DNA from: Alphaproteobacteria bacterium
Lineage (GTDB): Bacteria > Pseudomonadota > Alphaproteobacteria > Caulobacterales > Aquidulcibacteraceae
Direction of reading: 5' to 3'
Assembly (NCBI GenBank): GCA_027488965.1
Contig: JAIYAO010000200.1
Location: 1,646-65,645 of the forward strand
DNA length: 64,000 nucleotides
This document shows positions 2,311 to 16,674 of this stretch, piece after piece. A program made the translations under genes and the position numbers. Each line of letters opens with the position of its first letter. Within the stretch, counting starts at the first letter, position 1. The notes beneath the pieces are model-generated. The model was not told the origin of the DNA. It worked only from the letters and a program-made list of their open reading frames with translations, and did not search any database.

Positions 2311-3196
2311 ACACGCCCACCAGAATCAACGCCGCCCCGCCGAGGCCCACCGCGCCCAGCGGCTCGTCGAACAGCACCCAGCCGAAAGCCGCCGCCGCCA
2401 CCGGCTGCACGAACAGGAGAATGGTCGAGAGTGCGATCGGCAGCTTGCCGAGGCCGTAGGCGATGAAGCCCTGCCCGCACGAATGCACGAACACCCCGAG
2501 GAAGATCAGCACGCCCCACGCCGCCCATGTCTGGCGTTCCGGCAGGAACGGTTCGCCCAGCGCCGCCGTGGCGATCCCTGCGGCGACGAGCGCCGCCGCC
2601 GTCGTCACCAGCATCGCCACCGAAGCGCTCACGCGATCCCGCACGCCGCGCATCATCACGAGGTACGCCGCGTACCAGACCATCGACGCAAGGCCGAGCA
2701 GATCGCCCAGCAGTTCGCCCTGCCCCTCCTGCGCGCGCCCGTACGACATCGCCACGGCGCCCGCCACCGCGAGCGCGGCGCCCACGAACCAGGCCGCGCC
2801 CAGCCGCTCCCGGAACAGCACCCAGCCCGCCGCCGCCGCAATCACCGGCGTCATGTTGGAGAAGAGCGTGGCGTTGGCCACCGTCGTGTAGCCCAGCGCC
2901 GCGTGCCACAGCAGCAGATCGAACGCGAACACCACGCCGGCCAGAAGCATGAGCCGCACATCGTTGCGCGCAGGCGCGGGCGACCGCAGCAGGCGCGAGA
3001 CCGCAAACAGCACCGGCAGCGCAAATGCAAACCGCCAGAACGCCGTCGCCATCGGCCCCAGCTCCGACAGGCGCATGCCCACCGGCGCCAACCCGATGAT
3101 CGCCGCCCCGCCCGCCACCGCGAGGATGGCGCGTGTCCTGTTCCTGCTGCCTGCGGCCATGAGCAGTGGCATCGCCGCGACGCAGGCAAAAGGCAA
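2216..3196 (-). CDS. DMT/EamA family transporter
   Basis: About 10 hydrophobic helices in two EamA-like halves, Ala/Gly/Leu-rich. Start could be an internal Met (3172). The 3' tail overlaps the lepB tail. Confidence 0.8.
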   Translation of the reverse strand: MPFACVAAMPLLMAAGSRNRTRAILAVAGGAAIIGLAPVGMRLSELGPMATAFWRFAFALPVLFAVSRLLRSPAPARNDVRLMLLAGVVFAFDLLLWHAALGYTTVANATLFSNMTPVIAAAAGWVLFRERLGAAWFVGAALAVAGAVAMSYGRAQEGQGELLGDLLGLASMVWYAAYLVMMRGVRDRVSASVAMLVTTAAALVAAGIATAALGEPFLPERQTWAAWGVLIFLGVFVHSCGQGFIAYGLGKLPIALSTILLFVQPVAAAAFGWVLFDEPLGAVGLGGAALILVGVFIVQRARATPAGGTGAPAQAPPMRDHPGGAS

Positions 3197-3205
3197 GGCG
3201 CTTGC

Positions 3206-6200
3206 TCAACGCTCCGCGTAGCGCCGGAGCAGACCCGACACGGTCAAGGCCGCGAGAGACGTCACCAGCCAGCCCAGCAGTGCGTACCAGGACTTGGCCG
3301 CCACCCAGCCCCAGCGCTCCGGCCGGATGTCGCACCGCGACTCCTGCTTCAGGTCGATGAGCGGGACGAAACTGTCGAGCGCATACCAGATCGCATTGAT
3401 GTTGCCTCCGCACGGCCTGTGCGTGACGACACCTTCCTTGACGACGGCAAGCACCGGGTTTTCGCCCTGCAGGAAAACGAGGCCGTCCAACTGGACGGGA
3501 AATCCCGTGAGCGCGACCTGCGCGGCCAGAGCGCCGGCGAGCCAGAGGGCGAAGAATGTCGCGAGCGCGCGGCCTGTTGAGAGGCCGTTGTCGAAGAAGA
3601 CGGCGTAGAGCCAAAGGAACGGAACCGAGAGCCAGCGGGCCCTCTCAGCCCACCATCCCTCCTCACGCAGCCTTCGCTCCAGGTTGAGCTTGGTGCTTGT
3701 GATCTTGCGGGCGGAAAAACTGTCGCCCATGGCATGCAGCGCTTGGATGAGTTGCTCGTATGGCTGTGGGTTGTACACGGAGCCCCTGTGCGTAGGCTCT
3801 TGCCCTCCCTTGTACTGGCGCTTCAGCCAATCTTGCCGGGCCTGCCACCGCGCCTTGCGCAGTTTCCGGGTTGCGCGAGCACTCGGCACGGTCGATCTAC
3901 CACCGGCCTCCAACAACTTCTCCGGCTGTCTCGTTCCGGTAGGTCGTACGCGACCGTTGCCGCGGGCGCTTGATGCGACCCGTGCGGCCGATGGCGCATT
4001 GAACGCAGCTCGCGGATCTCTCACCCTGCCGTCCGTTTCGGAAAGTCTCTCGTAGTGCAAGCCCCCGAGCTTTAGCTCAGCCTCTTCCGGCCAGGCCCGC
4101 CCGAGATCGTCATCGAGCAACCCAATTCGCGCGCCGCTCACATCGAACACGATTTCTGCGGGCTGGGCTGGCGAAGTTTCGCCTGCCTTCATAACCCTCT
4201 TGTGCTTTCCGACCGGAGCGGCCTCTTTGACTTTGCCGCTGGCTTTGGCAGGTCCTTCGTTGTCTGCAACGGGCGTCAGATGGGCTTTTAGAGAGCCTTC
4301 CTGTACAGGTGTTGCTGGTGACCAGTCTCCCTCGTGAGGGGGTGGCAAGGGCCATGTACCGAAGCCCGAGCGCGTCACAATCCGGTAGGGCGCCTGATAG
4401 AGTACGCTTGGCGGCTCGTACGGGCCCAGCATGTTGTCTTCGAGCATCTCAATCCTGCCGATCGCTTCGGGATCGCTCGAATCCTGGATCCTGAACTTAG
4501 CTTCAAAGATCGCGGGTCCGTAAACGATCCAGCCGTCGATACGCCACTCGTTCTCCGCCCTGACCGCCGACAGCTTACCGCTCTCATTGAACTTTGACCG
4601 CTGCGCGGGCGGCAAAATGGCTGCCGACTCCACGACCTTGAAGGGTCCCTCGGGGCCCCAGACGTGTGCGCAGAAGAAGCTGATGTATCGCTTGACCTGT
4701 TCGTCTGTCTCGAGGGTCAGGCCGCACTTTTCGTTGTGCGCGTGAATTGGTGGCGATGTACCATTGAGTGCAATGACATCCGGCCCTGCGCGCTTCGCCC
4801 GCAACTCGGCGGGCGGCACATCGCGCACGAGAAAGCAGGCTAGCTTCGGCTTTTGCCCTGGAAACTGCGCCTCCACCAAGCTCCATCCCTTGTAGAAGGG
4901 CAAGCTCGTTGTTCTGGCTTGGGTAAAGTCCGAGAGGTTCAGCGCCACCCGGTCAAGGCGAAGAGCACGAGCGACGCGGGCATTAGCCAGATTGACGGCA
5001 TTCTGAGTGTTGCGGACTGACGTAAACAGCAATGGCCCACGATCAGTCGCCCCTAGTCGGACGTCTCCATCGACGGTGGCGCCTTCCAGATCAATCGCGC
5101 CGGACACCTCACCGGTAATCCTGACGTGTCCTTTCACGTTGAGAGACGACGCACCGATCGCTCGCCCATCGCTGCTTGCATAGCACGTCGCGTTGAAATC
5201 CAGATCCCTGCCGATCTCCGCGTACTCCAGCGTCATGCCATTCGACAACTCGGAACCCGGCATCAAGACCACCGAGCCGCCCACCACCGCGCGATCCATA
5301 GTCAGCGTCTGCGCTACGGAGCGCGCGATCGCATTGATGCGGACGTCTCCATTCACTCTGGCGTGCGCCAGAATCATGTGGCCGAATACCTTGGCGCTCT
5401 TGTCATCGTACCCGATCGAAATGGAGCCTGCGGTGAGGTGCCAAGCTTCGATGGCAGCGCTGTATCTTTGAGATTCATCTCCGATGATTGCGCCGAAGAT
5501 ACTTACTGTCCCTGACACGTGAGCGAACGACATCGAAAGGCAGCCGACGCATTTAAAGGGTCGACGTAGTTTTCGCGGGATACCCTCCGCAGTGTCTTCG
5601 CTTCTCTCGTCGTGGAAGCCGAGCCCGCCACCCACGTGCAGACTGTCGCCTACCAGAGCATCCGCCTCGCCCTTCTCGATAGAGGCGCCGATCATCCAGA
5701 CGTCGCCGGTTATCCGGCCATTTTTCAGAATCACGCCACCTTCGGCATCGGCGGCGTTGAAGTGCATCGAGCCGCGAATGGTGGCCTCGGAAAGTTCCAG
5801 CGCATAGTGCTTTGGGCGGTCAGCACTTATTTTCTCCGCGCGCCTCGCCGCGAGCTTCAGCCTTGCCTTGTCTCCCCGAAAGCTGCCGAAAACTTCGATG
5901 GCGCGCGCCTGGACCCAGCAATAGTCACCGTCCTCCAGCGGCCCGACGCCGCACACATCGACGTCGCCGGAGATGTGCGCCCCCTTGATGTCGATCCGCC
6001 CGAACCGCGAATTCTCTAGCGACAGATGCGCAAACCGCGCTCCGCGCGCCATCAGCGCCGGTACAGGGGGGGCCTCGCCCTCTTTCCAGTCATCCTTATC
6101 CGGGTCCTCGCGGTCGCGGTCCCCGAGCAGGTCGCAGTTCTTGAGCACGAGGGTCAGCGCGCCGAGGGCGTCGCCGGCGCCGAAGTAGTCCAGATCGATC

Positions 6201-6433
6201 TGGCCGTGGATGCGCGCGTTCTCGATCTGGATGCCGGCGGCGGTGAGCGGGACGACTTCGCCTTCGGCGTCGCCCGGCTTCAGCAGGATGGGTTGGCGCA
6301 ACGCGAGCCGGCGCAGCAACGCAGCCGCGATCACCGGCTTCTCGCCGCCCTCCTCCGGCAGCGGAAACACCTGCCGAACGCCCTGCCGGACGCTGTCCAC
6401 CACCAGGCGTTCAGAATCGCTGAGATTGTCCAT
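3206..6433 (-). CDS. large repeat-containing membrane-anchored protein of unknown function (beta-helix-like repeats + insert + C-terminal TM module)
   Basis: Uninterrupted 3228-nt ORF with visibly lower GC than its flanks (hand counts: about 60% on 4381-4490, about 83% on 6541-6600). aa 65-500 hold irregular repeats such as ARIHGQIDL, GAHISGDVDV, GRITGDVWM, ARVNGDVRI and GATVDGDVRL. aa 501-760 are non-repetitive. Further motifs: WPEEAELKLGGLHYERL and YNPQPYEQLIQAL. aa 934-1075 hold 3-4 hydrophobic helices plus YALDSFVPLIDLKQ. No catalytic motif recognised. Confidence 0.85.
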   Translation of the reverse strand: MDNLSDSERLVVDSVRQGVRQVFPLPEEGGEKPVIAAALLRRLALRQPILLKPGDAEGEVVPLTAAGIQIENARIHGQIDLDYFGAGDALGALTLVLKNCDLLGDRDREDPDKDDWKEGEAPPVPALMARGARFAHLSLENSRFGRIDIKGAHISGDVDVCGVGPLEDGDYCWVQARAIEVFGSFRGDKARLKLAARRAEKISADRPKHYALELSEATIRGSMHFNAADAEGGVILKNGRITGDVWMIGASIEKGEADALVGDSLHVGGGLGFHDERSEDTAEGIPRKLRRPFKCVGCLSMSFAHVSGTVSIFGAIIGDESQRYSAAIEAWHLTAGSISIGYDDKSAKVFGHMILAHARVNGDVRINAIARSVAQTLTMDRAVVGGSVVLMPGSELSNGMTLEYAEIGRDLDFNATCYASSDGRAIGASSLNVKGHVRITGEVSGAIDLEGATVDGDVRLGATDRGPLLFTSVRNTQNAVNLANARVARALRLDRVALNLSDFTQARTTSLPFYKGWSLVEAQFPGQKPKLACFLVRDVPPAELRAKRAGPDVIALNGTSPPIHAHNEKCGLTLETDEQVKRYISFFCAHVWGPEGPFKVVESAAILPPAQRSKFNESGKLSAVRAENEWRIDGWIVYGPAIFEAKFRIQDSSDPEAIGRIEMLEDNMLGPYEPPSVLYQAPYRIVTRSGFGTWPLPPPHEGDWSPATPVQEGSLKAHLTPVADNEGPAKASGKVKEAAPVGKHKRVMKAGETSPAQPAEIVFDVSGARIGLLDDDLGRAWPEEAELKLGGLHYERLSETDGRVRDPRAAFNAPSAARVASSARGNGRVRPTGTRQPEKLLEAGGRSTVPSARATRKLRKARWQARQDWLKRQYKGGQEPTHRGSVYNPQPYEQLIQALHAMGDSFSARKITSTKLNLERRLREEGWWAERARWLSVPFLWLYAVFFDNGLSTGRALATFFALWLAGALAAQVALTGFPVQLDGLVFLQGENPVLAVVKEGVVTHRPCGGNINAIWYALDSFVPLIDLKQESRCDIRPERWGWVAAKSWYALLGWLVTSLAALTVSGLLRRYAER

Positions 6434-6504: not shown

Positions 6505-8391
6505 TCAGTTCGCGCCGCCGCCGGGGCGGGTGTCGGCGCCGGCGAGGACGGCGGGGGCGCGGCGGCGGTCGCGGCGGTCCTGGCGCTGCAGCTCGACGAG
6601 GTAGGCGGCGAGGCTTGCGGCTTCGGCCTTCGTGAGGCCGGGGTTGGGCATGGCGACGGTGGCGCCGAAGCTTTCGGGCGCGAGCAGGTAGCGCGTGAGC
6701 GCGCCTTCGCTCCAGACGCCGCCCGCGCGCGACAGCGCCTCGGAGTAGGCGTAGCCCTCCTGCGCGCCGATGCGCCGCCCGGCGACGTTGCGCAGCGCAG
6801 GACCGGCGGCGGCGGCGCCCCGCAGGCTGTGGCACTCCGCGCAGCGGCGCCCATAGAGCAGCGCGCCCTCCGCCACGTGGCCGGCCCGCCTGGCCGAAAG
6901 GCCCGCCAGCGTCACCTTCGGCGCCACCCTGGCTTCGGCGTTGTAGAGCAGGCTGGCGCCGGGGCCGGCGGCGTTGCGCAGCAGCAGCATGGACATGCGG
7001 CTGTCGAGCATGGCGATGCGCCCGTCGGGCAGCACCTCGATGTCGCGCAGCGAGTGGCCGCCGAAGCGGATCGGCTCGGCGTAGATGACCTCGTCGCCCT
7101 CCAGCCGCACGCGGAATAGCGTGTTGCCCGACAGCGACCCCACGAGGAGATCGCCCGCCCAGTTGGGGAACATCGCCGCCGGCGCCTCCACGAGGTTGCT
7201 GATGCCCACCGACGGCATCCACGCATGGACCGGCGGCCGGAAGCCGTCGTGGCGGCCTTCCACCGCAGCGCCCGGCCACGGGCGCTGATCGTAGTTCACG
7301 CCGTAGGTGACTTTCGGCCAGCCCAGATTGTCGCCAGGCCGCACGAGATTGAGCTCGTCGCCACCGTGCGGGCCGTGCTCGGTCTCCCAGATGCGGCCGC
7401 GGGAGTCGCGCATGAGGCCCTGCCCGTTGCGCGTCCCCTTGGCGAAGGGCGCATGCGCGCCGGTGTCCTTGTCGATCAGCAGGATCTTGCCCATCGTGGC
7501 GGCGTCGTCCTGCGCCACGTCCACGCCGCGCGCCTCGAACACCTGCTGGTCGCCCACTGTCATCAGCAGGTGCTTGTCGTCGTAGTCCAGCATCCGCCCG
7601 CCCGAGAGATTGCCGGAGAACGGGATGTAGATGGCGGAATACTCCTGCATCACCGGGAAACAGGGCGTGGCCACGAACAGCCGCTTCCAGCCCTCCGTCT
7701 GGCGCACACGCTCGCCCTCCACGACGATGGTGCTGCGGCTCAGGTGGAACTCGATGCAGGTCTTCGTGAAGTGGTAGTGCGTGGCGTAGAAATCGTACGT
7801 GTCGGTGCGCCCCCGCCGCAGGGCGAGAATGTCGTTGATGCGGAAGAACAGGCGCTCCATCCCCGGCGTGCGCCACAGCGGATCGGCGCGGAATTCCTCG
7901 AGATTGAGCGGGGACGCGATCTCGGCCTTCGCAAAGGCCGCCGTATCGGGATTGAGCGCGATGAACGCGCCGTGGGCCGTCACCGCCAGCAGCTTGCCGC
8001 CGGCGAGCTGCGTCATGGCGGCGGAGCGCACGGGGCGCGGCTGGAGCGCGATGAGGTTCAGCTCGAGATCCTGCAGCTCCGACGGGAGCGGCTTCCACGC
8101 CGCCGCCTGCGCCTTCACCGCCGCCTCCCCGCGCACCGCGCGGTCGAGCCAGTCAAAGCTGTTGTTGACGACCGCCTCGGCATAGTGGCGCGCCTTGTCG
8201 GCGATGGGGATGCGGTTGATCACGAAGCGGATCGACACGTAGCCGAACACCATCAGCCCGAGCGCTACGGCCCCCAGCGCCGCGATCCGGCGCCAGTTCT
8301 GCGCGACCGCGCCCACGCCCCGGCCCGCTGCGCCCGCAAGCGCGCGCGCCGCCGCGAGGGGCTCAAGCCCGTGGGGAAACCGGAATGCCAT
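6505..8391 (-). CDS. membrane-anchored PQQ-dependent sugar (glucose/sorbosone-type) dehydrogenase fused to a C-terminal cytochrome c domain
   Basis: Start taken at ATG 8391 (MAFRFPHG) because the upstream ORF part is Arg/Pro-rich. TM helix AALGAVALGLMVFGYV. Propeller-type core motifs GPHGGDELN, LGWPKVTYG and HAWMPSVGISN. C-terminal CAECH haem-binding site with a downstream Met (VAMPNP). Confidence 0.8.
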   Translation of the reverse strand: MAFRFPHGLEPLAAARALAGAAGRGVGAVAQNWRRIAALGAVALGLMVFGYVSIRFVINRIPIADKARHYAEAVVNNSFDWLDRAVRGEAAVKAQAAAWKPLPSELQDLELNLIALQPRPVRSAAMTQLAGGKLLAVTAHGAFIALNPDTAAFAKAEIASPLNLEEFRADPLWRTPGMERLFFRINDILALRRGRTDTYDFYATHYHFTKTCIEFHLSRSTIVVEGERVRQTEGWKRLFVATPCFPVMQEYSAIYIPFSGNLSGGRMLDYDDKHLLMTVGDQQVFEARGVDVAQDDAATMGKILLIDKDTGAHAPFAKGTRNGQGLMRDSRGRIWETEHGPHGGDELNLVRPGDNLGWPKVTYGVNYDQRPWPGAAVEGRHDGFRPPVHAWMPSVGISNLVEAPAAMFPNWAGDLLVGSLSGNTLFRVRLEGDEVIYAEPIRFGGHSLRDIEVLPDGRIAMLDSRMSMLLLRNAAGPGASLLYNAEARVAPKVTLAGLSARRAGHVAEGALLYGRRCAECHSLRGAAAAGPALRNVAGRRIGAQEGYAYSEALSRAGGVWSEGALTRYLLAPESFGATVAMPNPGLTKAEAASLAAYLVELQRQDRRDRRRAPAVLAGADTRPGGGAN

Positions 8392-8919: not shown

Positions 8920-10794
8920 ATGTATCGGAACGAGGCGGTTGCGGCGGCTCCCACGCGGTTGGCGGATCATCGCCGGGGCAAGCCCAAGGCGGTGAAAGAC
9001 CGGCTTGGCCTCGTGAAGAAGGTCGTCACCGACCCGTCGCGCGACGCGCTGCTGACGGACTTCGGCAAGACCACCCTGGACGACCGCTACCTGCTCACCG
9101 GCGAGAGCTACCAGGACATGTTCGCCCGCGTGGCGACTGCCTATGCCGACGACGTCGAGCACGCCCAGCGCATCTACGACTACATCTCCCGCCTCTGGTT
9201 CATGCCGGCGACGCCGGTGCTGTCGAACGGCGGCGCCGACCGCGGCCTGCCGATCTCCTGCTTCCTCAATTCCGTGGGCGACAGCCTCGACGACATCGTC
9301 GACACCTGGAACGAGAACGTGTGGCTCGCCTCCAACGGCGGCGGCATCGGCACGTACTGGGGGTCCGTCCGCTCCATCGGCGAGAAGGTGGGCCAGAACG
9401 GGCAGACGTCCGGCATCATCCCGTTCATCCACGTGATGGACTCACTGACGCTGGCCATCAGCCAGGGCTCGCTGCGGCGCGGCTCGGCGGCGGTGTACCT
9501 CGACGTCCACCACCCCGAGATCGAGGAGTTCCTCGAAATCCGGAAGCCGAGCGGGGACTTCAACCGCAAGTCCCTGAACCTGCACCACGGCATCAACATC
9601 ACCGACGAGTTCATGATCGCGGTGCGCGACGGCGCGCCCTTCGGCCTGCGCAGCCCGAAGAACGGCGAGATCGTGAAGCTCACGGACGCCCGCAAGATCT
9701 GGCAGAAGATCATCGAGCTGCGCCTGCAGACCGGCGAGCCCTACATCATCTTCTCCGACACCGTGAACAACCAGATGCCGGCGCACCAGAAACGCCTCGG
9801 CCTGAAGGTCCGCCAAAGCAATCTCTGCTCCGAGATCATGCTGCACACCGGTCTCGACCATCTCGGTCGGGACCGGACGGCGGTGTGCTGCCTGTCGTCG
9901 CTGAACGCGGAGAAGTTCCTGGAGTGGGAAGGCCACGAGGGCTTCCTGGAGGACATCTTCCGCTTCCTCGACAACGTGCTGCAGGACTTCATCGAGCGTG
10001 CGCCGCCGGAAATGGAGCGCGCGATCTACGCCGCCTACCGCGAACGGTCCGTGGGCCTCGGCGTCATGGGCTTCCACTCGTTCCTGCAGGCGATGAACGT
10101 GCCGTTCGAGTCCGCGATGGCGAAGTCGTGGAACATGAAGATCTTCAAGCACGTGCGCCGCGGCGCGGACGCAGCGTCCGTGAAGCTCGCGCAGGAGCGC
10201 GGCCCCTGCCCGGATGCGGCGGAAGCCAACGTGATGGCGCGCTTCTCGCACAAGCTGGCGATCGCGCCGACGGCGTCGATCTCGATCATCTGCGGCGGCA
10301 CGTCCGCCGGCATCGAGCCGATCCCGGCCAACATCTACACGCACAAGACGCTGAGCGGCTCCTTCGCGGTGAAGAACCCCTACCTGGAAGCGCTGATCGA
10401 CGCGAAGGGGAAGAACACCGAAGACACGTGGAACTCGATCCTCGCCAACGAAGGCAGCGTGCAGCACCTGGAGTTTCTCACCGACGACGAAAAGGCCGTG
10501 TTCAAGACGGCGTTCGAGCTGGATCAACGCTGGATCATCGAACTCGCCGCCGACCGCACGCCACTGATCTGCCAGTCGCAATCGCTCAACGTGTTCCTGC
10601 CGGGCGACGTCGACAAGTGGGACCTGCACATGCTGCACTGGATGGCGTGGGAACAGGGCGTGAAGAGCCTGTACTACTGCCGCTCCAAGAGCGTGCAACG
10701 CGCGGGCTTCGCGCAAGGCGAAGGCATGAAGGCCGAAGCGGCGGAGATTTCGAGCACGAAGACGGACTACGAGGAGTGTCTGGCGTGTCAGTGA
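8920..10794 (+). CDS. nrdA: ribonucleoside-diphosphate reductase alpha subunit (class I, no ATP-cone)
   Basis: Catalytic QSNLCSEI box, PISCFLN, PTASISII, and C-terminal redox-shuttle pair in YEECLACQ. The N-terminus has no ATP-cone-like VxKRDG segment. Confidence 0.95.
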   Translation: MYRNEAVAAAPTRLADHRRGKPKAVKDRLGLVKKVVTDPSRDALLTDFGKTTLDDRYLLTGESYQDMFARVATAYADDVEHAQRIYDYISRLWFMPATPVLSNGGADRGLPISCFLNSVGDSLDDIVDTWNENVWLASNGGGIGTYWGSVRSIGEKVGQNGQTSGIIPFIHVMDSLTLAISQGSLRRGSAAVYLDVHHPEIEEFLEIRKPSGDFNRKSLNLHHGINITDEFMIAVRDGAPFGLRSPKNGEIVKLTDARKIWQKIIELRLQTGEPYIIFSDTVNNQMPAHQKRLGLKVRQSNLCSEIMLHTGLDHLGRDRTAVCCLSSLNAEKFLEWEGHEGFLEDIFRFLDNVLQDFIERAPPEMERAIYAAYRERSVGLGVMGFHSFLQAMNVPFESAMAKSWNMKIFKHVRRGADAASVKLAQERGPCPDAAEANVMARFSHKLAIAPTASISIICGGTSAGIEPIPANIYTHKTLSGSFAVKNPYLEALIDAKGKNTEDTWNSILANEGSVQHLEFLTDDEKAVFKTAFELDQRWIIELAADRTPLICQSQSLNVFLPGDVDKWDLHMLHWMAWEQGVKSLYYCRSKSVQRAGFAQGEGMKAEAAEISSTKTDYEECLACQ

Positions 10795-10824: not shown

Positions 10825-11655
10825 GTGAGCGGAGTCATGCCCTTCGAACTGAAACTGCCTCTGTTTGATCACTGGAACGAATGGCAGCCCGCCGCGAAAT
10901 ACTGCTTTGTCGCATTGGTGGCTATTGCCGTGATGCTGGCTGTCTGGGCGAATGGCGACGCCATAACGAGGGCAGAGCAGAGGCAATCTGGTAAAGCTGC
11001 GGCAGAACCGCAGCAAGATGTAAGCTGGACACTCAGCCCGGTTGAGTCTGAGCACTTTACTGCTCTAGAGCGCATTCGAGTCGTCACTCTTGGTCCCACT
11101 CTCGGATTTAACGACGTCCATGAGATAAAGCTCTCCCATCGAGACGGACGAGACGTAGGGACCTTCACCGTCATAGGCTTGTATTCGGATAGCTTCTGGC
11201 TTCCGGGCAAGTACGACGATCTATACATAACTCAACGAGCCAAGGCGCCGATCATCGAACACCTGCGCGACCCGAGGTTTCGTGCCTTGATTTCCTATGC
11301 TGAGGAGGTGTTGTGCGTAGGATTGGTTTCGTCGACTTCTAAGGAGGGGGCCGAAGCTGATCAGCTATCGCACAAGCGTGCTGAGAGATTGCGTGCCCTT
11401 CTTGCTACAGCCGGCGGCTTCGACAAGTTGCAACTGCATGCAGTTCCGTTCGGCCGAGCACAGACACCCGTTACAACACGCTCGGCGGATCAATGGCAGC
11501 GAAGCGGGGTCCTCATCGGACTGAAGAGAACTGATCGAACGGTTGCCGACCACGTACTTTACGCCGAGTTGCTAAAGCGCGTGAGGCTAAAGCACGTCAA
11601 CCTGAATGACTACTCTCGAGTCGGCCAGCTTCGGGAGCCAGCCAAGCTGCCTTGA
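10825..11655 (+). CDS. hypothetical membrane-anchored protein with OmpA_C-like C-terminal region (low-GC orphan)
   Basis: About 52% GC on a hand count of 11041-11100. TM helix YCFVALVAIAVMLAVWA. The C-terminus VLCVGLVSSTSKEGAEADQLSHKRAERLRALLATAGG...FGRAQ...QRSGVLIGL follows the OmpA/MotB peptidoglycan-binding pattern. Start is GTG 10825 or ATG 10837. Confidence 0.65.
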   Translation: MSGVMPFELKLPLFDHWNEWQPAAKYCFVALVAIAVMLAVWANGDAITRAEQRQSGKAAAEPQQDVSWTLSPVESEHFTALERIRVVTLGPTLGFNDVHEIKLSHRDGRDVGTFTVIGLYSDSFWLPGKYDDLYITQRAKAPIIEHLRDPRFRALISYAEEVLCVGLVSSTSKEGAEADQLSHKRAERLRALLATAGGFDKLQLHAVPFGRAQTPVTTRSADQWQRSGVLIGLKRTDRTVADHVLYAELLKRVRLKHVNLNDYSRVGQLREPAKLP

Positions 11656-11829
11656 GACCCGGCGGCTTCGCCCAGCGCGATGAACGCGCGCTCGAAGGCG
11701 TAGCGCGTGCGCTCATCCGCCCGTGTAGCTGGCGACGTCCATGCCTGCCGTCCATTCGCCTATGCGCGCGATCTGCAATCGCGCCCGCGCGACAATCTCC
11801 GCCGGCGGCTTGGCTTTGCCGGGGGCCAT
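11652..11829 (-). pseudogene. HEPN/DUF86 (HepT-like) toxin fragment, frameshifted and 3'-truncated
   Basis: Minus-strand MAPGKAKPPAEIVARARLQIARIGEWTAGMDVASYTGG stop, then in another frame ADERTRYAFERAFIALGEAA. This matches the N-terminal half of the DUF86 pattern (I..I..y..G....F..D......A..R.L.IIGEA). The RxxxxH part is missing. Confidence 0.55.
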
Positions 11830-11834
11830 CGCTC

Positions 11835-11957
11835 TCAAAACACCGGCACGAGATCGGCCGTCTCGCGCACCTTCAGCCGCGTCGTCGCGTCGAAGCCGGA
11901 CTTGGCGACGATATCGACGCGGCCGCCGTCTGCGCCCATCGCCCGCACATCTCGCGC
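11835..11957 (-). pseudogene. MNT-type nucleotidyltransferase antitoxin fragment (C-terminal about 35 aa only)
   Basis: Minus-strand ...GGRVDIVAKSGFDATTRLKVRETADLVPVF stop resembles the C-terminal KVDLV....L.P.....I..EAV.V tail of MntA-like proteins. Its stop lies 5 nt before the HepT-like ATG, which is TA-operon spacing. The N-terminal part is replaced by palindromic repeat DNA. Confidence 0.5.
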
Positions 11958-12121
11958 GCACCCCACCCGACCTTCGCTGCGCTCCGGCCACCCTCCCCAT
12001 CGAGGGGAGGGAGGGCGTCCCGTGGCGGAGACGTTTGCGCGGCCGAAACGCCGTTTCACCAAGCGCCAGCGCCCTCCCTCCCCTCCATGGGGAGGGTGGC
12101 GCGCAGCGCCGGGTGGGGTGC
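11958..12121. repeat. ~164-bp imperfect nested palindrome (REP/BIME-like)
   Basis: Outer arms GCACCCCACCCG / CGGGTGGGGTGC. Inner arms CCACCCTCCCCATCGAGGGGAGGGAGGGCG / CGCCCTCCCTCCCCTCCATGGGGAGGGTGG. Each arm is itself a small hairpin. Confidence 0.85.
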
Positions 12122-12184
12122 GCACGGTGCGGCGGGGGCGAGGGGCGCGGAGGGGCGCCGCGGCGCGAACTCAGCATCGCGCGG

Positions 12185-12305
12185 CCCCATCCCCCCGCGT
12201 TGCGGGGGACTTCCCCCGCGGTGCGGGGGAAGAAACAGAGACGTGGCGCAGCGGTTTCTTCCCCCGTTCACGGGGGAAGTCCCCCGCAACGCGGGGGGAT
12301 GGGGG
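12185..12305. repeat. ~120-bp near-perfect nested palindrome
   Basis: CCCCATCCCCCCGCGTTGCGGGGGACTTCCCCCGCGGTGCGGGGGAAGAAAC ... GTTTCTTCCCCCGTTCACGGGGGAAGTCCCCCGCAACGCGGGGGGATGGGGG. Confidence 0.85.
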
Positions 12306-12309
12306 CAAG

Positions 12310-12557
12310 GCGCGGAAAATGGGGGGATAGTGACACCCGCTATCCCTGTTTATCGCGCCGCTTCCTCCGGGGCGCCGCATCGCGGCGACCCCCGAGACCA
12401 TTCGCACCGGATGTGCGGGAAATGCTGCAACGACGGGTGTTTTCGCCAGCGCCGCCGCGCGTAGGGCTTCCGGGTTCGCGGCTGCGCCGCGCCCCGGACA
12501 AAGAAAATGCAGCCTCCCAATCCGGGGGATGAAACCCCCGTGGCACACTCCTCCTCG
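12310..12557 (+). repeat. mosaic intergenic repeat, copy 1 (MITE/BIME-like, no coding capacity)
   Basis: Left end GCGCGGAAAATGGGGGGATAGTGACACCCGCTATCCCTGTTTAT. Right end CTCCCAATCCGGGGGATGAAACCCCCGTGGCACACTCCTCC. Both ends recur in reverse complement at 36426-36614, with a different internal module. Confidence 0.75.
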
Positions 12558-13041: not shown

Positions 13042-13953
13042 ATGCACGGCAGCCACGGCCACCATCACCACGACCATGGGCACGACCACGGCGCCCACGC
13101 CGCCCGGCCGTTCGGCGTGGCGCTGCTGATCAATTTCGCCTTCGTGCTGGTGGAGACCGCGGCCGGGTTTGCGGCCAACTCCACCGCCCTGCTGGCGGAC
13201 GCGGGCCACAACCTCTCCGACGTGCTGGGCCTCGGCCTTGCGGGCGGCGCTGCGTGGCTTGCGACGCGCGCGGCGTCGCCGCGGCGCACCTACGGCTACG
13301 GCAAGGCGGGCGTGGCCGCGGCGCTGGCCAACGGGCTGCTGCTGGTGGCGGCCTCCGGCGCCATCGGCTGGGAGGCGATCCGCCGGCTCTCGGCGCCGGA
13401 AACGGTGGCGCCGCTCATCGTGATGGGCGCCGCCGCCGCCGGCATCCTGGTCAACGGCGGCACGGCGCTGCTGTTTGCGCGGTCGGCCAAGTCCGACCTC
13501 AACGCCCGCGGCGCCTACCTGCACCTGATGGCGGACGCCGCCGTTTCCGCCGGCGTCATCGTGGCCGGCGCGCTGGTGTGGGCCACGGGGGCGGCGTGGA
13601 TCGATCCGGCCGCGAGCCTGATCGTGGTGGGCGTCATCGTCTGGGGTTCGTGGGGCCTGCTGCGGGATTCGCTCGATCTCATCCTCGACGCCGCGCCCGG
13701 CAACATCGATGTGGCGGCCGTCCGCCGCCGCCTCGGCGCGCTGCCCGGCGTCACCGAAGTGCACGACCTGCACGTCTGGGCCATGACCGCGAGCGAACCG
13801 GCGCTGACCGCCCACCTCGTGCGCCCCGACGGCGCCGACGACGCGTTCCTCGATGCGGCCGAACACGACCTGCGCACAGCCTTCGGCATCCGCCACATCA
13901 CCCTGCAGGTGGAGCGCAGCGTCCGCGGGCCCTGCGCCGACGCCCATGCCTGA
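13042..13953 (+). CDS. czcD: cation diffusion facilitator (Zn/Co/Cd-type) efflux transporter
   Basis: His-rich N-terminus MHGSHGHHHHDHGHDHG, CDF TM core (ALLADAGHNLSDV, HLMADA) and C-terminal cytoplasmic domain HDLHVWAMT...ALTAHL. Confidence 0.9.
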   Translation: MHGSHGHHHHDHGHDHGAHAARPFGVALLINFAFVLVETAAGFAANSTALLADAGHNLSDVLGLGLAGGAAWLATRAASPRRTYGYGKAGVAAALANGLLLVAASGAIGWEAIRRLSAPETVAPLIVMGAAAAGILVNGGTALLFARSAKSDLNARGAYLHLMADAAVSAGVIVAGALVWATGAAWIDPAASLIVVGVIVWGSWGLLRDSLDLILDAAPGNIDVAAVRRRLGALPGVTEVHDLHVWAMTASEPALTAHLVRPDGADDAFLDAAEHDLRTAFGIRHITLQVERSVRGPCADAHA

Positions 13954-15645: not shown

Positions 15646-16674
15646 ATGGCGTACGGCGCGGGCGGCAGCACTCCGGGACTTCTCACCCCCTCCAGGGCGT
15701 ACAAGCCCTTCCGCTACCCGTGGGCGCACGATTTCTGGAAGCGCCAGCAGCAGATCCACTGGATGCCCGAGGAAGTGCCGCTGGGCGAGGACGTGAAGGA
15801 CTGGGCTTCCAAGCTCAACGACCAGGAGCGCAACCTCCTGACCCAGATCTTCCGGTTCTTCACCCAGGGCGACATCGAGGTGAACGACAACTACATGGAA
15901 CGCTACGCGCGCGTCTTCAAACCCACCGAGGTGAAGATGATGCTGTCGGCGTTCTCCAACATCGAGACGATCCACGTGGCCGCCTACGCGCTGCTGCTGG
16001 AAACCATCGGCATGCCCGAGAGCGAGTTCGCTGCGTTCCTCGACTACGAGGCGATGAAGAACAAGCACGACTACATGGGCCAGTTCGGCGTGGAGACCGA
16101 AGGCGACATCTTGCGCACGGTGGCGATGTTCGGCGGCTTCACCGAAGGCCTGCAGCTGTTTGCGTCGTTCGCGATGCTGATGAACTTCCCGCGCTTCAAC
16201 AAGATGAAGGGCATGGGCCAGATCGTGAGCTGGAGCGTGCGCGATGAGTCGCTGCACTGCGAGGGCATGATCAAACTGTTCCATGCCTTCTCCGCCGAAA
16301 CGGATGCACTGACGAAGGCCGTGAAGGACGACATCATCGGCTGCTGCGAACACGTGGTGAGCCTGGAAGACAAGTTCATCGACCTCGCCTTCGAGATGGG
16401 GCCCGTGCAGGGCATGACGCCGGAGGACATCAAGGCCTACATCCGCTACATCGCCGATTGGCGGCTGGGGCAACTGGGCCTGCCGAAGCTGTATGGCGCG
16501 AAGGATCACCCGATCCCGTGGCTGACGGCGATCCTGAACGGCGTCGAGCACGCGAACTTCTTCGAGGCGCGCGCCACCGAATACTCCAAGGGCGCCACGC
16601 GGGGCGAATGGCACGGCGCCGACGGCGTCTGGGGCGCATTCGACCAAATGATGGAAAAGCGCAAGGCGGTTTGA
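15646..16674 (+). CDS. nrdB: ribonucleoside-diphosphate reductase beta subunit (class Ia-like, tyrosyl-radical type)
   Basis: RBS AAGAGGA. Di-iron/radical motif ETIHVAAY (E-x-x-H-x-x-x-Y) and second ligand set SVRDESLHCEG. Confidence 0.95.
   Translation: MAYGAGGSTPGLLTPSRAYKPFRYPWAHDFWKRQQQIHWMPEEVPLGEDVKDWASKLNDQERNLLTQIFRFFTQGDIEVNDNYMERYARVFKPTEVKMMLSAFSNIETIHVAAYALLLETIGMPESEFAAFLDYEAMKNKHDYMGQFGVETEGDILRTVAMFGGFTEGLQLFASFAMLMNFPRFNKMKGMGQIVSWSVRDESLHCEGMIKLFHAFSAETDALTKAVKDDIIGCCEHVVSLEDKFIDLAFEMGPVQGMTPEDIKAYIRYIADWRLGQLGLPKLYGAKDHPIPWLTAILNGVEHANFFEARATEYSKGATRGEWHGADGVWGAFDQMMEKRKAV

Follow-up and report, generated by a model that had tools for sequence, protein, structure and literature searches.

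The 64,000-nucleotide stretch of alphaproteobacterial DNA analyzed here (assembly GCA_027488965.1, contig JAIYAO010000200.1; hereafter, the window) carries on its minus strand, at positions 3206-6433, a gene whose product raises a double question: to which family does this large protein belong, and what could it do? The open reading frame (ORF) is intact, starts with ATG and encodes 1075 amino acids according to the ORF list and its translation. Among about 62 putative genes it is the longest of the window; the original prediction, an earlier reading of the sequence letters, had already named it as the largest, and also described the gene as an orphan. The latter description could not be maintained, as at least 1,641 clusters at 50% identity belong to its family, and the protein is a full-length member of a large, widespread and unnamed bacterial family. 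It appears to combine a pentapeptide-like solenoid with an inserted domain and a membrane module that are both new, and we infer its function only tentatively: with a probability of about 0.35, a cytoplasmic sensing platform would control an oligomer in the membrane that lets cations pass or disturbs the membrane in some other way.

Family membership and cytoplasmic domains

A phmmer search against 1.84 billion representatives of clusters at 50% identity returned 1,641 matches at E≤1e-3, 568 at E≤1e-10 and 146 at E≤1e-30; the best non-self match had an E-value of 9e-106, and many alignments crossed the region of the insert described below. The identity of the protein to 79 aligned members is 24-32%, and it reaches 68% with the protein P0002. 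A word-indexed protein search with the full protein gave three matches, namely the protein itself, P0002 (68%) and one distant partial match; the same kind of search with the insert profile missed even known members, a sensitivity failure that carries no evidence.

Scanning species-representative genomes with a tight profile of the C-terminal module, we found members in Alphaproteobacteria (Hyphomicrobiaceae, Brevundimonas, Caulobacterales, Hyphomonadaceae, Asticcacaulis, Rhizobiaceae, Xanthobacteraceae and Acetobacteraceae) and, furthermore, in Betaproteobacteria (Rubrivivax, Variovorax), Bryobacteraceae and an actinomycete metagenome-assembled genome (MAG); distant short forms come from Verrucomicrobiae and Kineosporiaceae. 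Local hidden Markov models (HMMs) of the N-terminal cap, the insert and the C-terminal module were all matched by 111 of the 152 best family hits, and in a further 26 the cap and the C-terminal module were present without the insert. Member lengths range from ~200 to ~1,760 amino acids, with the length of the solenoid varying freely. Proteins of 200-440 amino acids, encoded on long contigs, consist of a short solenoid followed by a 'G(F/L)xYxR ... PQPYEQL ... 2-TM' module, where TM stands for transmembrane helix; because these short forms carry both parts, solenoid plus membrane module are probably the ancestral unit. In the window, the same HMMs match only the 3206-6433 ORF and reveal no paralogue of it; because they include the query itself, independent evidence of membership comes from the phmmer search. 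One member, P0007, appears twice in assembly GCA_016307145.1, on contigs of 111 kb and 7 kb (loci L002 and L003) and each time with the same neighbours, which is probably an assembly redundancy and no true duplication.

The family, with at least 1,600 clusters at 50% identity in several phyla, has no name, and Pfam, NCBIfam, PADLOC and PHROGs have no model for its two distinctive modules; such uncharacterised families are common. The original prediction had rightly recognised an uncharacterised family by its N-terminal repeats and tail, and it had connected this family with the label 'membrane-associated oxidoreductase'. This label was not retrievable: all source names obtained for relatives read 'hypothetical protein', no redox family of Pfam or NCBIfam was matched, and in the literature the phrase denotes unrelated proteins, e.g. 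DoxX. Literature searches on PF13576, on pentapeptide repeats together with anti-phage functions and on that same phrase returned nothing relevant to the family. From Pfam, the protein and its relatives show a single signal, that of Pentapeptide_3 (PF13576), which scores 25.3 bits (E 1.8e-5) on the 1075-amino-acid protein, under the Pfam gathering threshold of 27 bits, and lies above it in P0003 (40.8 bits), P0010 (32.0 bits) and P0199 (39.9 bits). Scans of the protein with NCBIfam, PADLOC and PHROGs gave no match, with 0 families of PADLOC-DB v2.0 at E≤1. The PDB sequences yielded nothing significant with the single protein or with three profiles (full length, C-terminal module and insert), and Foldseek found no match at E≤1e-3 for the full model in PDB or BFVD, the best template-modelling scores (TM-scores) being ≤0.2; neither a structural relative in these two collections nor literature on the family was found.

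An AlphaFold2 (AF2) model built from an 80-sequence alignment had a mean predicted local distance difference test score (pLDDT) of 86.3 and a predicted TM-score (pTM) of 0.80. The protein has no signal peptide. Behind the helical cap, the model shows a solenoid, in agreement with the beta-helix-like repeats of about 435 amino acids proposed by the original prediction and with the sub-threshold Pentapeptide_3 match, whereas the periodicity of the sequence itself is weak: the repeat autocorrelation has z≤2.6, and the lag-5 autocorrelation of the hydrophobic pattern gives z=1.7 in residues 60-300 and is absent in residues 300-500, even if local stretches such as ARFAHLSLENSRFGRIDIKGAHISGDVDV look pentapeptide-like. 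Given these irregular repeats, the assignment as a solenoid draws on the AF2 model, on weak pentapeptide matches and on beta-helix tailspikes as the best, non-significant, structural matches; the profile matches to PDB in this part are marginal and comprise McbG-like proteins and MfpA (E 0.06-0.25) and tail-spike proteins. Solenoid residues Cys99 and Cys171 are conserved in 93-97% of the members and may form a core ladder. Two positions of the window protein deviate from the consensus, Ser141 (Cys in 76% of the members; window 6009-6011) and His899 (Arg in 74%; 3735-3737). Conservation amounts to ~1.44-1.47 bits/column in both the solenoid and the insert.

The earlier division of the protein into four parts was right as to its quoted motifs, its multi-part character and its helical N-terminus; what was then taken as a non-repetitive insert is instead a conserved alpha/beta domain, and the solenoid resumes behind it. 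Modelled alone with AF2, this domain reached a pLDDT of 87, and it is predicted to be an insertion inside the solenoid, since solenoid strands resume at residues 756-800; in the insert-less homologue P0003 the motif of these last rungs comes right after the repeat array. Comparison of the domain with PDB gave a best Foldseek E-value of 0.06 with TM-scores <0.4, and a profile search was likewise without match. What the family conserves in this domain are hydrophobic residues or glycines. Many members have other residues in place of the His in the motif 'IHxxN' and the Cys in 'FFC' (Tyr for His in P0002), so a Cys-His catalytic dyad, considered as a candidate, was rejected, and the inserted domain is unlikely to be an enzyme. 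As these insert residues vary and no invariant catalytic residue emerges from family conservation in any cytoplasmic domain, the cytoplasmic part as a whole is probably not catalytic.

A stand-alone homologue of the insert, the 254-amino-acid hypothetical protein WP_318894714.1, is encoded on three conjugative Sinorhizobium megaplasmids. It aligns to the insert with an hhalign probability of 99.3% (E 1e-20) and retains all the motifs, which shows the insert to be an autonomous domain. This true homologue is itself uncharacterised and lacks both the solenoid and the membrane module. Its copy on Sinorhizobium meliloti plasmid pEm1132b (locus L024, 5851-6615; NZ_CP148088.1, 197342-198106) lies 4 bp upstream of a gene of the type IV secretion system coupling-protein family and has as further neighbours the genes for a very large protein with ankyrin repeats and for a patatin-like phospholipase. 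A second, weaker match is present on all three plasmids.

The membrane module

The original prediction counted three to four TM helices at the C-terminus; family-averaged hydropathy gives instead two robustly hydrophobic helices, at ~958-976 and ~1050-1070, separated by a conserved loop. The AF2 model places C-terminal helices at 952-975, 1013-1021 (short) and 1040-1073 (long). Helix 936-952, which reaches an averaged hydropathy of only ~0.5, is probably interfacial, and the motif segment 1014-1027 is moderately hydrophobic on the family average. The juxtamembrane helices in front of the module are conserved in the short family forms too.

Conservation peaks in this part of the protein, with 2.78 bits/column at 1006-1034 and 2.69 in the second TM helix (TM2), compared with ~0.5 in the linkers. 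The conserved polar residues nearly all lie in the loop or in TM2 (C1007, Y1016, D1019, D1026, Q1029, E1030, C1033, W1042, K1046, Y1049), and D1019 and P1023 are near-invariant. The core motif of the loop, C1007...Y1016-A-L-D1019..F.P1023-L-I-D1026-L-K-Q1029-E1030-S-R-C1033 (window 3332-3418), has the family form YALD.F.PL.DL.QE, and the window protein retains C1007, Y1016, D1019, P1023, D1026, Q1029, E1030 and C1033.

The flanks of the TM helices are rich in Lys and Arg (K/R fraction 0.2-0.27), in contrast to the acidic, K/R-poor loop that separates the helices. According to the positive-inside rule, K/R-rich flanks point to the cytoplasmic side, and the topology is therefore probably N-in/C-in with a periplasmic loop. 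The two cysteines of the loop co-vary across 200 proteins: 162 have both C1007 and C1033, 37 have neither and one has a single Cys. This co-variation fits a C1007-C1033 disulfide, which would stabilise the loop, and supports the placement of the loop in an oxidising compartment. The coordinates of all the features are collected in Table 1.

Table 1. Features of the gene at 3206-6433 and of its product, in window coordinates.
Feature	Residues	Position	Strand	Basis and remarks
Complete coding sequence	1-1075	3206..6433	-	1075 codons plus stop codon (3206-3208); ORF list, translation, purifying selection
N-terminal helical cap	1-60	6254..6433	-	AF2 helices 5-16 and 36-43, pLDDT >90; consensus E7, G17, R40
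Predicted irregular pentapeptide-like beta-solenoid	61-500	4934..6253	-	AF2 strands, sub-threshold Pentapeptide_3, marginal PDB-profile matches
Autonomous alpha/beta domain inserted in the solenoid	~505-700	4334..4921	-	Motifs YxGWxLxE, LxGxSxxIHxxN, YLxFFCxxVWGxxGxF, YGxxLFxAxF, GxVxMxxD
Poorly conserved, largely disordered segment	701-755	4169..4333	-	pLDDT <50 at 721-753; 0.52 bits/column; short predicted helix 708-718
Predicted last solenoid rungs	756-800	4034..4168	-	Four AF2 strands 760-796; motif DLxGxxxGxLxDxxGxxWxxxxxLxLxGxxYxRL; 1.79 bits/column
Basic, disordered, unconserved linker	801-850	3884..4033	-	pLDDT <50 at 811-843; 0.50 bits/column
Conserved juxtamembrane helices	851-952	3578..3883	-	RxxWLxxQY, PQPYEQL, amphipathic helix 936-952, FxxGLS; AF2 helices 851-870, 889-901, 904-924, 928-949
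Predicted TM helix 1 (TM1)	953-976	3506..3577	-	Family-averaged Kyte-Doolittle hydropathy up to 1.93; K/R-rich segment precedes
Acidic K/R-poor loop, probably periplasmic	977-1045	3299..3505	-	Charge distribution, conservation
Predicted TM2 and cytoplasmic RRxxE tail	1046-1075	3209..3298	-	Hydropathy 1.9; 2.69 bits/column; K1046, Y1049, G1053, S1058, T1063, G1066, R1069-R1070 conserved
Low-GC hyper-divergent interior	~130-995 (codons)	3449..6046	-	GC 0.612; putative recombinationally replaced allele

Composition and divergence of the gene interior

The gene has the lowest GC content of all the 3.2-kb windows along the stretch (0.625, compared with 0.697 in the remaining window; mean of the 3.2-kb windows 0.694, standard deviation 0.028, z about -2.5). 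At third codon positions its GC content (GC3) falls to 0.74, where the median of the window is 0.88 (standard deviation 0.07), and codons ending in A or T make up 26% of the gene. The hand counts made previously, ~60% GC at 4381-4490 and ~83% at 6541-6600, were exact (0.600 and 0.833), and the foreign-looking composition with frequent A- or T-ending codons noticed at that time re-emerged in the window scan, but it is limited to codons ~130-995, where GC3 drops down to 0.5-0.75; the first ~125 and the last ~75 codons have a native GC3 of ≥0.9. Repeats flanking the gene, as well as promoter and terminator scans at the locus, gave nothing above chance.

In the only close relative, a Logan assembly (L001), neither the locus of the gene nor the set of genes downstream of it differs; a metagenome scan revealed no further close alleles. 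The divergence is mosaic, and its breakpoints are sharp. Nucleotide identity between the two genomes is 88-97% in the flanks and 72% in the gene interior, and third-position identity is 0.83-0.93 at codons ~31-125 and in the last ~75 codons and 0.3-0.55 between them. At the four-fold sites of conserved amino acids, the identity in the interior is 0.39 where chance would give 0.31, which corresponds to 89% saturation, compared with 28-45% elsewhere (identities of 0.76 and 0.84 in the gene ends, 0.85 in the EamA gene and 0.74 in the GNAT gene). Codon bias as the source of the saturated interior was ruled out by this four-fold-site test. An interior that is near-saturated between ends and flanks that are not points to an intragenic replacement of the allele, and the simplest reading would be that homologous recombination, with crossovers in the conserved gene ends, put a divergent, lower-GC interior into at least one of the lineages. 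The native-looking ends around a near-saturated low-GC interior suggest a diversifying pressure on the cytoplasmic part.

The 1075-codon frame is intact in both genomes, and omega between the two alleles is ~0.1-0.3, indicating purifying selection and thus that both alleles are functional. The original prediction had named orthologues of normal composition at the same locus in all close relatives as contrary evidence to its reading, and the outcome is mixed: the only close relative carries an orthologue at this position, yet in that genome, too, the gene has an abnormal composition, and the interior is a very divergent allele. The atypical composition recurs across the family: GC3 of the family gene is under that of its neighbours in most of 13 genomic loci, e.g. 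0.52 vs 0.7-0.87 in L014 and L017. The difference is clear in L007, L014, L015, L016, L017, L018 and L019, and the exceptions are L006, L010 and L013. Also the structure of the locus is variable between the window genome and L001, which lacks (at 876-883) ~1.39 kb corresponding to window ~6734-8123, that is, the PQQ/GSDH part of the upstream GSDH-cytochrome c gene.

Proposed function, rival explanations and neighbourhood

In the reading that we put forward, the cytoplasmic solenoid with its inserted domain would be a non-enzymatic platform for binding or sensing, the juxtamembrane helices would couple this platform to the membrane module, and an oligomer of the module, made of two TM helices and a re-entrant acidic loop, would conduct cations or otherwise perturb the membrane. 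The layout would be analogous, not homologous, to that of CorA (GMN motif), MCU (DxxE motif) and KcsA-type P-loop channels. These are cation channels with two TM helices and an acidic loop motif, in which a large N-terminal part in the cytoplasm likewise precedes TM1, and a conserved short helix with the acidic motif leads on to TM2. In contrast to them, the loop of the window protein is much longer and, as the Cys co-variation suggests, braced by a Cys pair, and there is no similarity of sequence or fold (PDB, Foldseek E≤1e-3). The sensor-plus-pore layout of the original prediction accords with the conservation and the polar residues of the membrane module and with the lack of catalytic residues in the cytoplasmic part, whereas its abortive-infection or toxin gloss is weakly supported, given that no PADLOC model matched, that the neighbours at 13 loci are mostly housekeeping genes and that the plasmid and phage searches gave no full-length member. 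If true, a gated pore of this type would be a new channel or effector architecture; otherwise the family would be a well-delimited domain of unknown function. Now defined for the family are its architecture, a probable topology, a few conserved polar residues and an autonomous inserted domain that is also encoded alone on conjugative plasmids.

Several points weigh against this proposal. Oligomerisation and ion conduction are proposed from an analogy of layout, and neither sequence nor fold searches gave a match to a channel, transporter or defence family. The topology is deduced solely from hydropathy, the positive-inside rule and the Cys co-variation, and the TM count could change with helix 936-952, which is weakly hydrophobic, and with the motif helix 1013-1021. 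The mosaic divergence comes from one genome pair, and the gene occupies the same locus in these two related genomes with an omega of 0.1-0.3 and without sign of positive selection. Furthermore, the 65 neighbours analyzed at 13 loci are mostly housekeeping genes (Pfam: GidA, CysRS, GlnA, YidC, PdxA, efflux pumps, two-component systems), with sporadic PADLOC matches, e.g. a HerA-like ATPase in L015, and full-length members are absent from 72,556 plasmids and 50,697 phages searched with tblastn, the latter without any match.

Among the alternatives, a membrane-anchored scaffold or adaptor is possible, if doubtful. The TM helices and the periplasmic loop would here act as a tether and perhaps dock an envelope partner, and the solenoid would position proteins in a bactofilin-like manner, with nothing crossing the membrane. 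Such a role would agree with beta-solenoids and pentapeptide-repeat proteins being typically binding surfaces, with cytoplasmic domains devoid of invariant catalytic residues, with a solenoid length free to vary in proteins of ~200 to ~1,760 amino acids and with the stable position among housekeeping genes. Simple anchors, however, are usually poorly conserved, whereas loop and TM2 are the most conserved parts here, with polar and small residues on TM2, and a low GC content with allele replacement would be unusual in a core scaffold. Bactofilins and right-handed parallel beta-helix proteins (tailspikes, pectate-lyase superfamily) were the best matches of Foldseek and of the PDB profiles, yet non-significant ones (fold E >1e-3; bactofilin E 0.37, which is negligible), and the window protein is predicted to be a membrane-anchored protein of the cytoplasm, neither secreted nor built into a virion. 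We regard as quite unlikely an outside-in receptor, whose disulfide-braced periplasmic loop would bind an envelope or extracellular cue, with solenoid and insert giving the output through protein-protein interaction. The top conservation does fall in the loop placed in the periplasm, the Cys pair co-varies and the conserved juxtamembrane helices could pass a signal, but no recognisable output domain (kinase, cyclase, DNA-binding) appeared in the Pfam and NCBIfam scans, no partner gene is conserved, a motif of ~30 residues is small for a ligand-binding site, and a fast-diverging cytoplasmic part with a constant outside part is the reverse of most sensors.

A cation channel or transporter with a housekeeping role, an analogue of CorA or MCU with a large cytoplasmic regulatory domain that serves ion homeostasis instead of conflict, would share the common layout of two TM helices with an acidic loop, and the gene adjoins a co-oriented EamA transporter gene in both close genomes and has a CDF transporter nearby; this explanation is nevertheless improbable, as no transporter or channel family is matched by sequence or fold, the EamA adjacency is not kept at other loci, and the patchy, low-GC, recombining behaviour is atypical of homeostasis genes. 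As to a membrane-tethered DNA mimic of the Qnr/MfpA/McbG type that shields topoisomerases, the weak Pentapeptide_3 signal and the marginal McbG-like and MfpA profile matches (E 0.06-0.25) are what would speak for it. Pentapeptide-repeat proteins (PF13576, PF00805; MfpA, Qnr, McbG, AlbG) have in common with the window protein a beta-solenoid built from repeats, and the hallmark of their family is regular tandem repeats of five residues, A(D/N)LXX. The repeats of the window protein are irregular and without strong five-residue periodicity, Pentapeptide_3 scores under the Pfam cut-off, residues 61-500 are just mildly acidic (59 D+E vs 49 K+R) with no sign of DNA mimicry, and the protein is about five times as long as those of the Qnr type, with an alpha/beta insert and a conserved module of two TM helices in addition, all of which makes this explanation very improbable. 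Finally, a non-functional foreign remnant or a spurious long ORF, which the atypical composition could have suggested, is effectively refuted by the frame of 1075 codons kept intact in two genomes with an omega of 0.1-0.3, by hundreds of full-length homologues and by the confident AF2 model.

Returning to the sensing platform with a gated module, the gene probably behaves like an accessory locus in which homologous recombination exchanges the interior, and this would fit a role in conflict or stress better than core housekeeping. A more specific version is unlikely: a new class of single-protein, chromosomal membrane effector in which the solenoid and the new alpha/beta domain would detect an invader or stress and open an oligomeric cation pore made of a new module of two TM helices with a disulfide-braced acidic loop, its specificity being renewed by swapping of the interior through recombination between the conserved gene ends. 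With the single-gene abortive-infection and defence proteins of PADLOC-DB, the window protein shares the stand-alone gene, a repeat or sensor part with a small membrane module, the atypical GC content and the turnover of alleles; it differs from them in having no model match, mostly housekeeping neighbours, no plasmid or phage copies and, in its membrane module, a conserved polar loop motif where they have plain TM helices. Support for a dedicated anti-phage role is weak: composition and allele turnover are compatible with it, but nothing in PADLOC, in the neighbourhoods or in the plasmid and phage searches speaks for it.

The neighbours of the gene are of housekeeping type, as previously noted, and the window contains no tRNA. 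Downstream of the gene lie the EamA transporter and then genes for an S26 signal peptidase, a GNAT protein and a B12-binding mutase, and upstream come GSDH-cytochrome c and the two ribonucleotide reductase genes, alpha nearer to the gene and beta farther away, with two unannotated ORFs and a CDF transporter between them; these neighbours gave 0 matches to PADLOC. An all-versus-all comparison of flanking ORFs at 20 loci revealed no conserved partner gene, and the only matches in the plasmid collection are the three Sinorhizobium plasmids, with the insert domain alone. Overall, the members look like stand-alone chromosomal genes that are only weakly associated with defence genes; several of the PADLOC matches among the neighbours are probably generic helicases or ATPases, and the DpdF- and PsyrT-like ones may be generic helicases. 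In the actinomycete MAG (L018), a gene for a 947-amino-acid AAA+ ATPase (2519-5362, plus strand; IetA and TRIP13 models of PADLOC) precedes the family gene by 14 bp on the same strand; no other candidate for an operon partner was seen, and this one is not conserved at other loci. Next to the gene of member P0008 (L004/L005), a patatin-like gene (weak Pfam match; L004 1721-3616) is directly upstream and a ParE toxin gene just downstream, so that a patatin-like gene was seen twice beside a family member or the insert domain, at P0008 and at L024.

The statement that the 1075-codon gene is the only long one of odd composition needs correction, since the shorter ORF at 10825-11655 (plus strand, 276 amino acids) is a second compositional outlier, with a GC content of 0.557 and a GC3 of 0.60; it has no match in Pfam, NCBIfam or PADLOC. 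Together with the unannotated ORF at 11652-12464 (plus strand), the CDF transporter gene (13042-13953) and another ORF, it lies between the genes for ribonucleotide reductase alpha (8920-10794) and beta (15646-16674), and it may be an insertion splitting the nrd genes.

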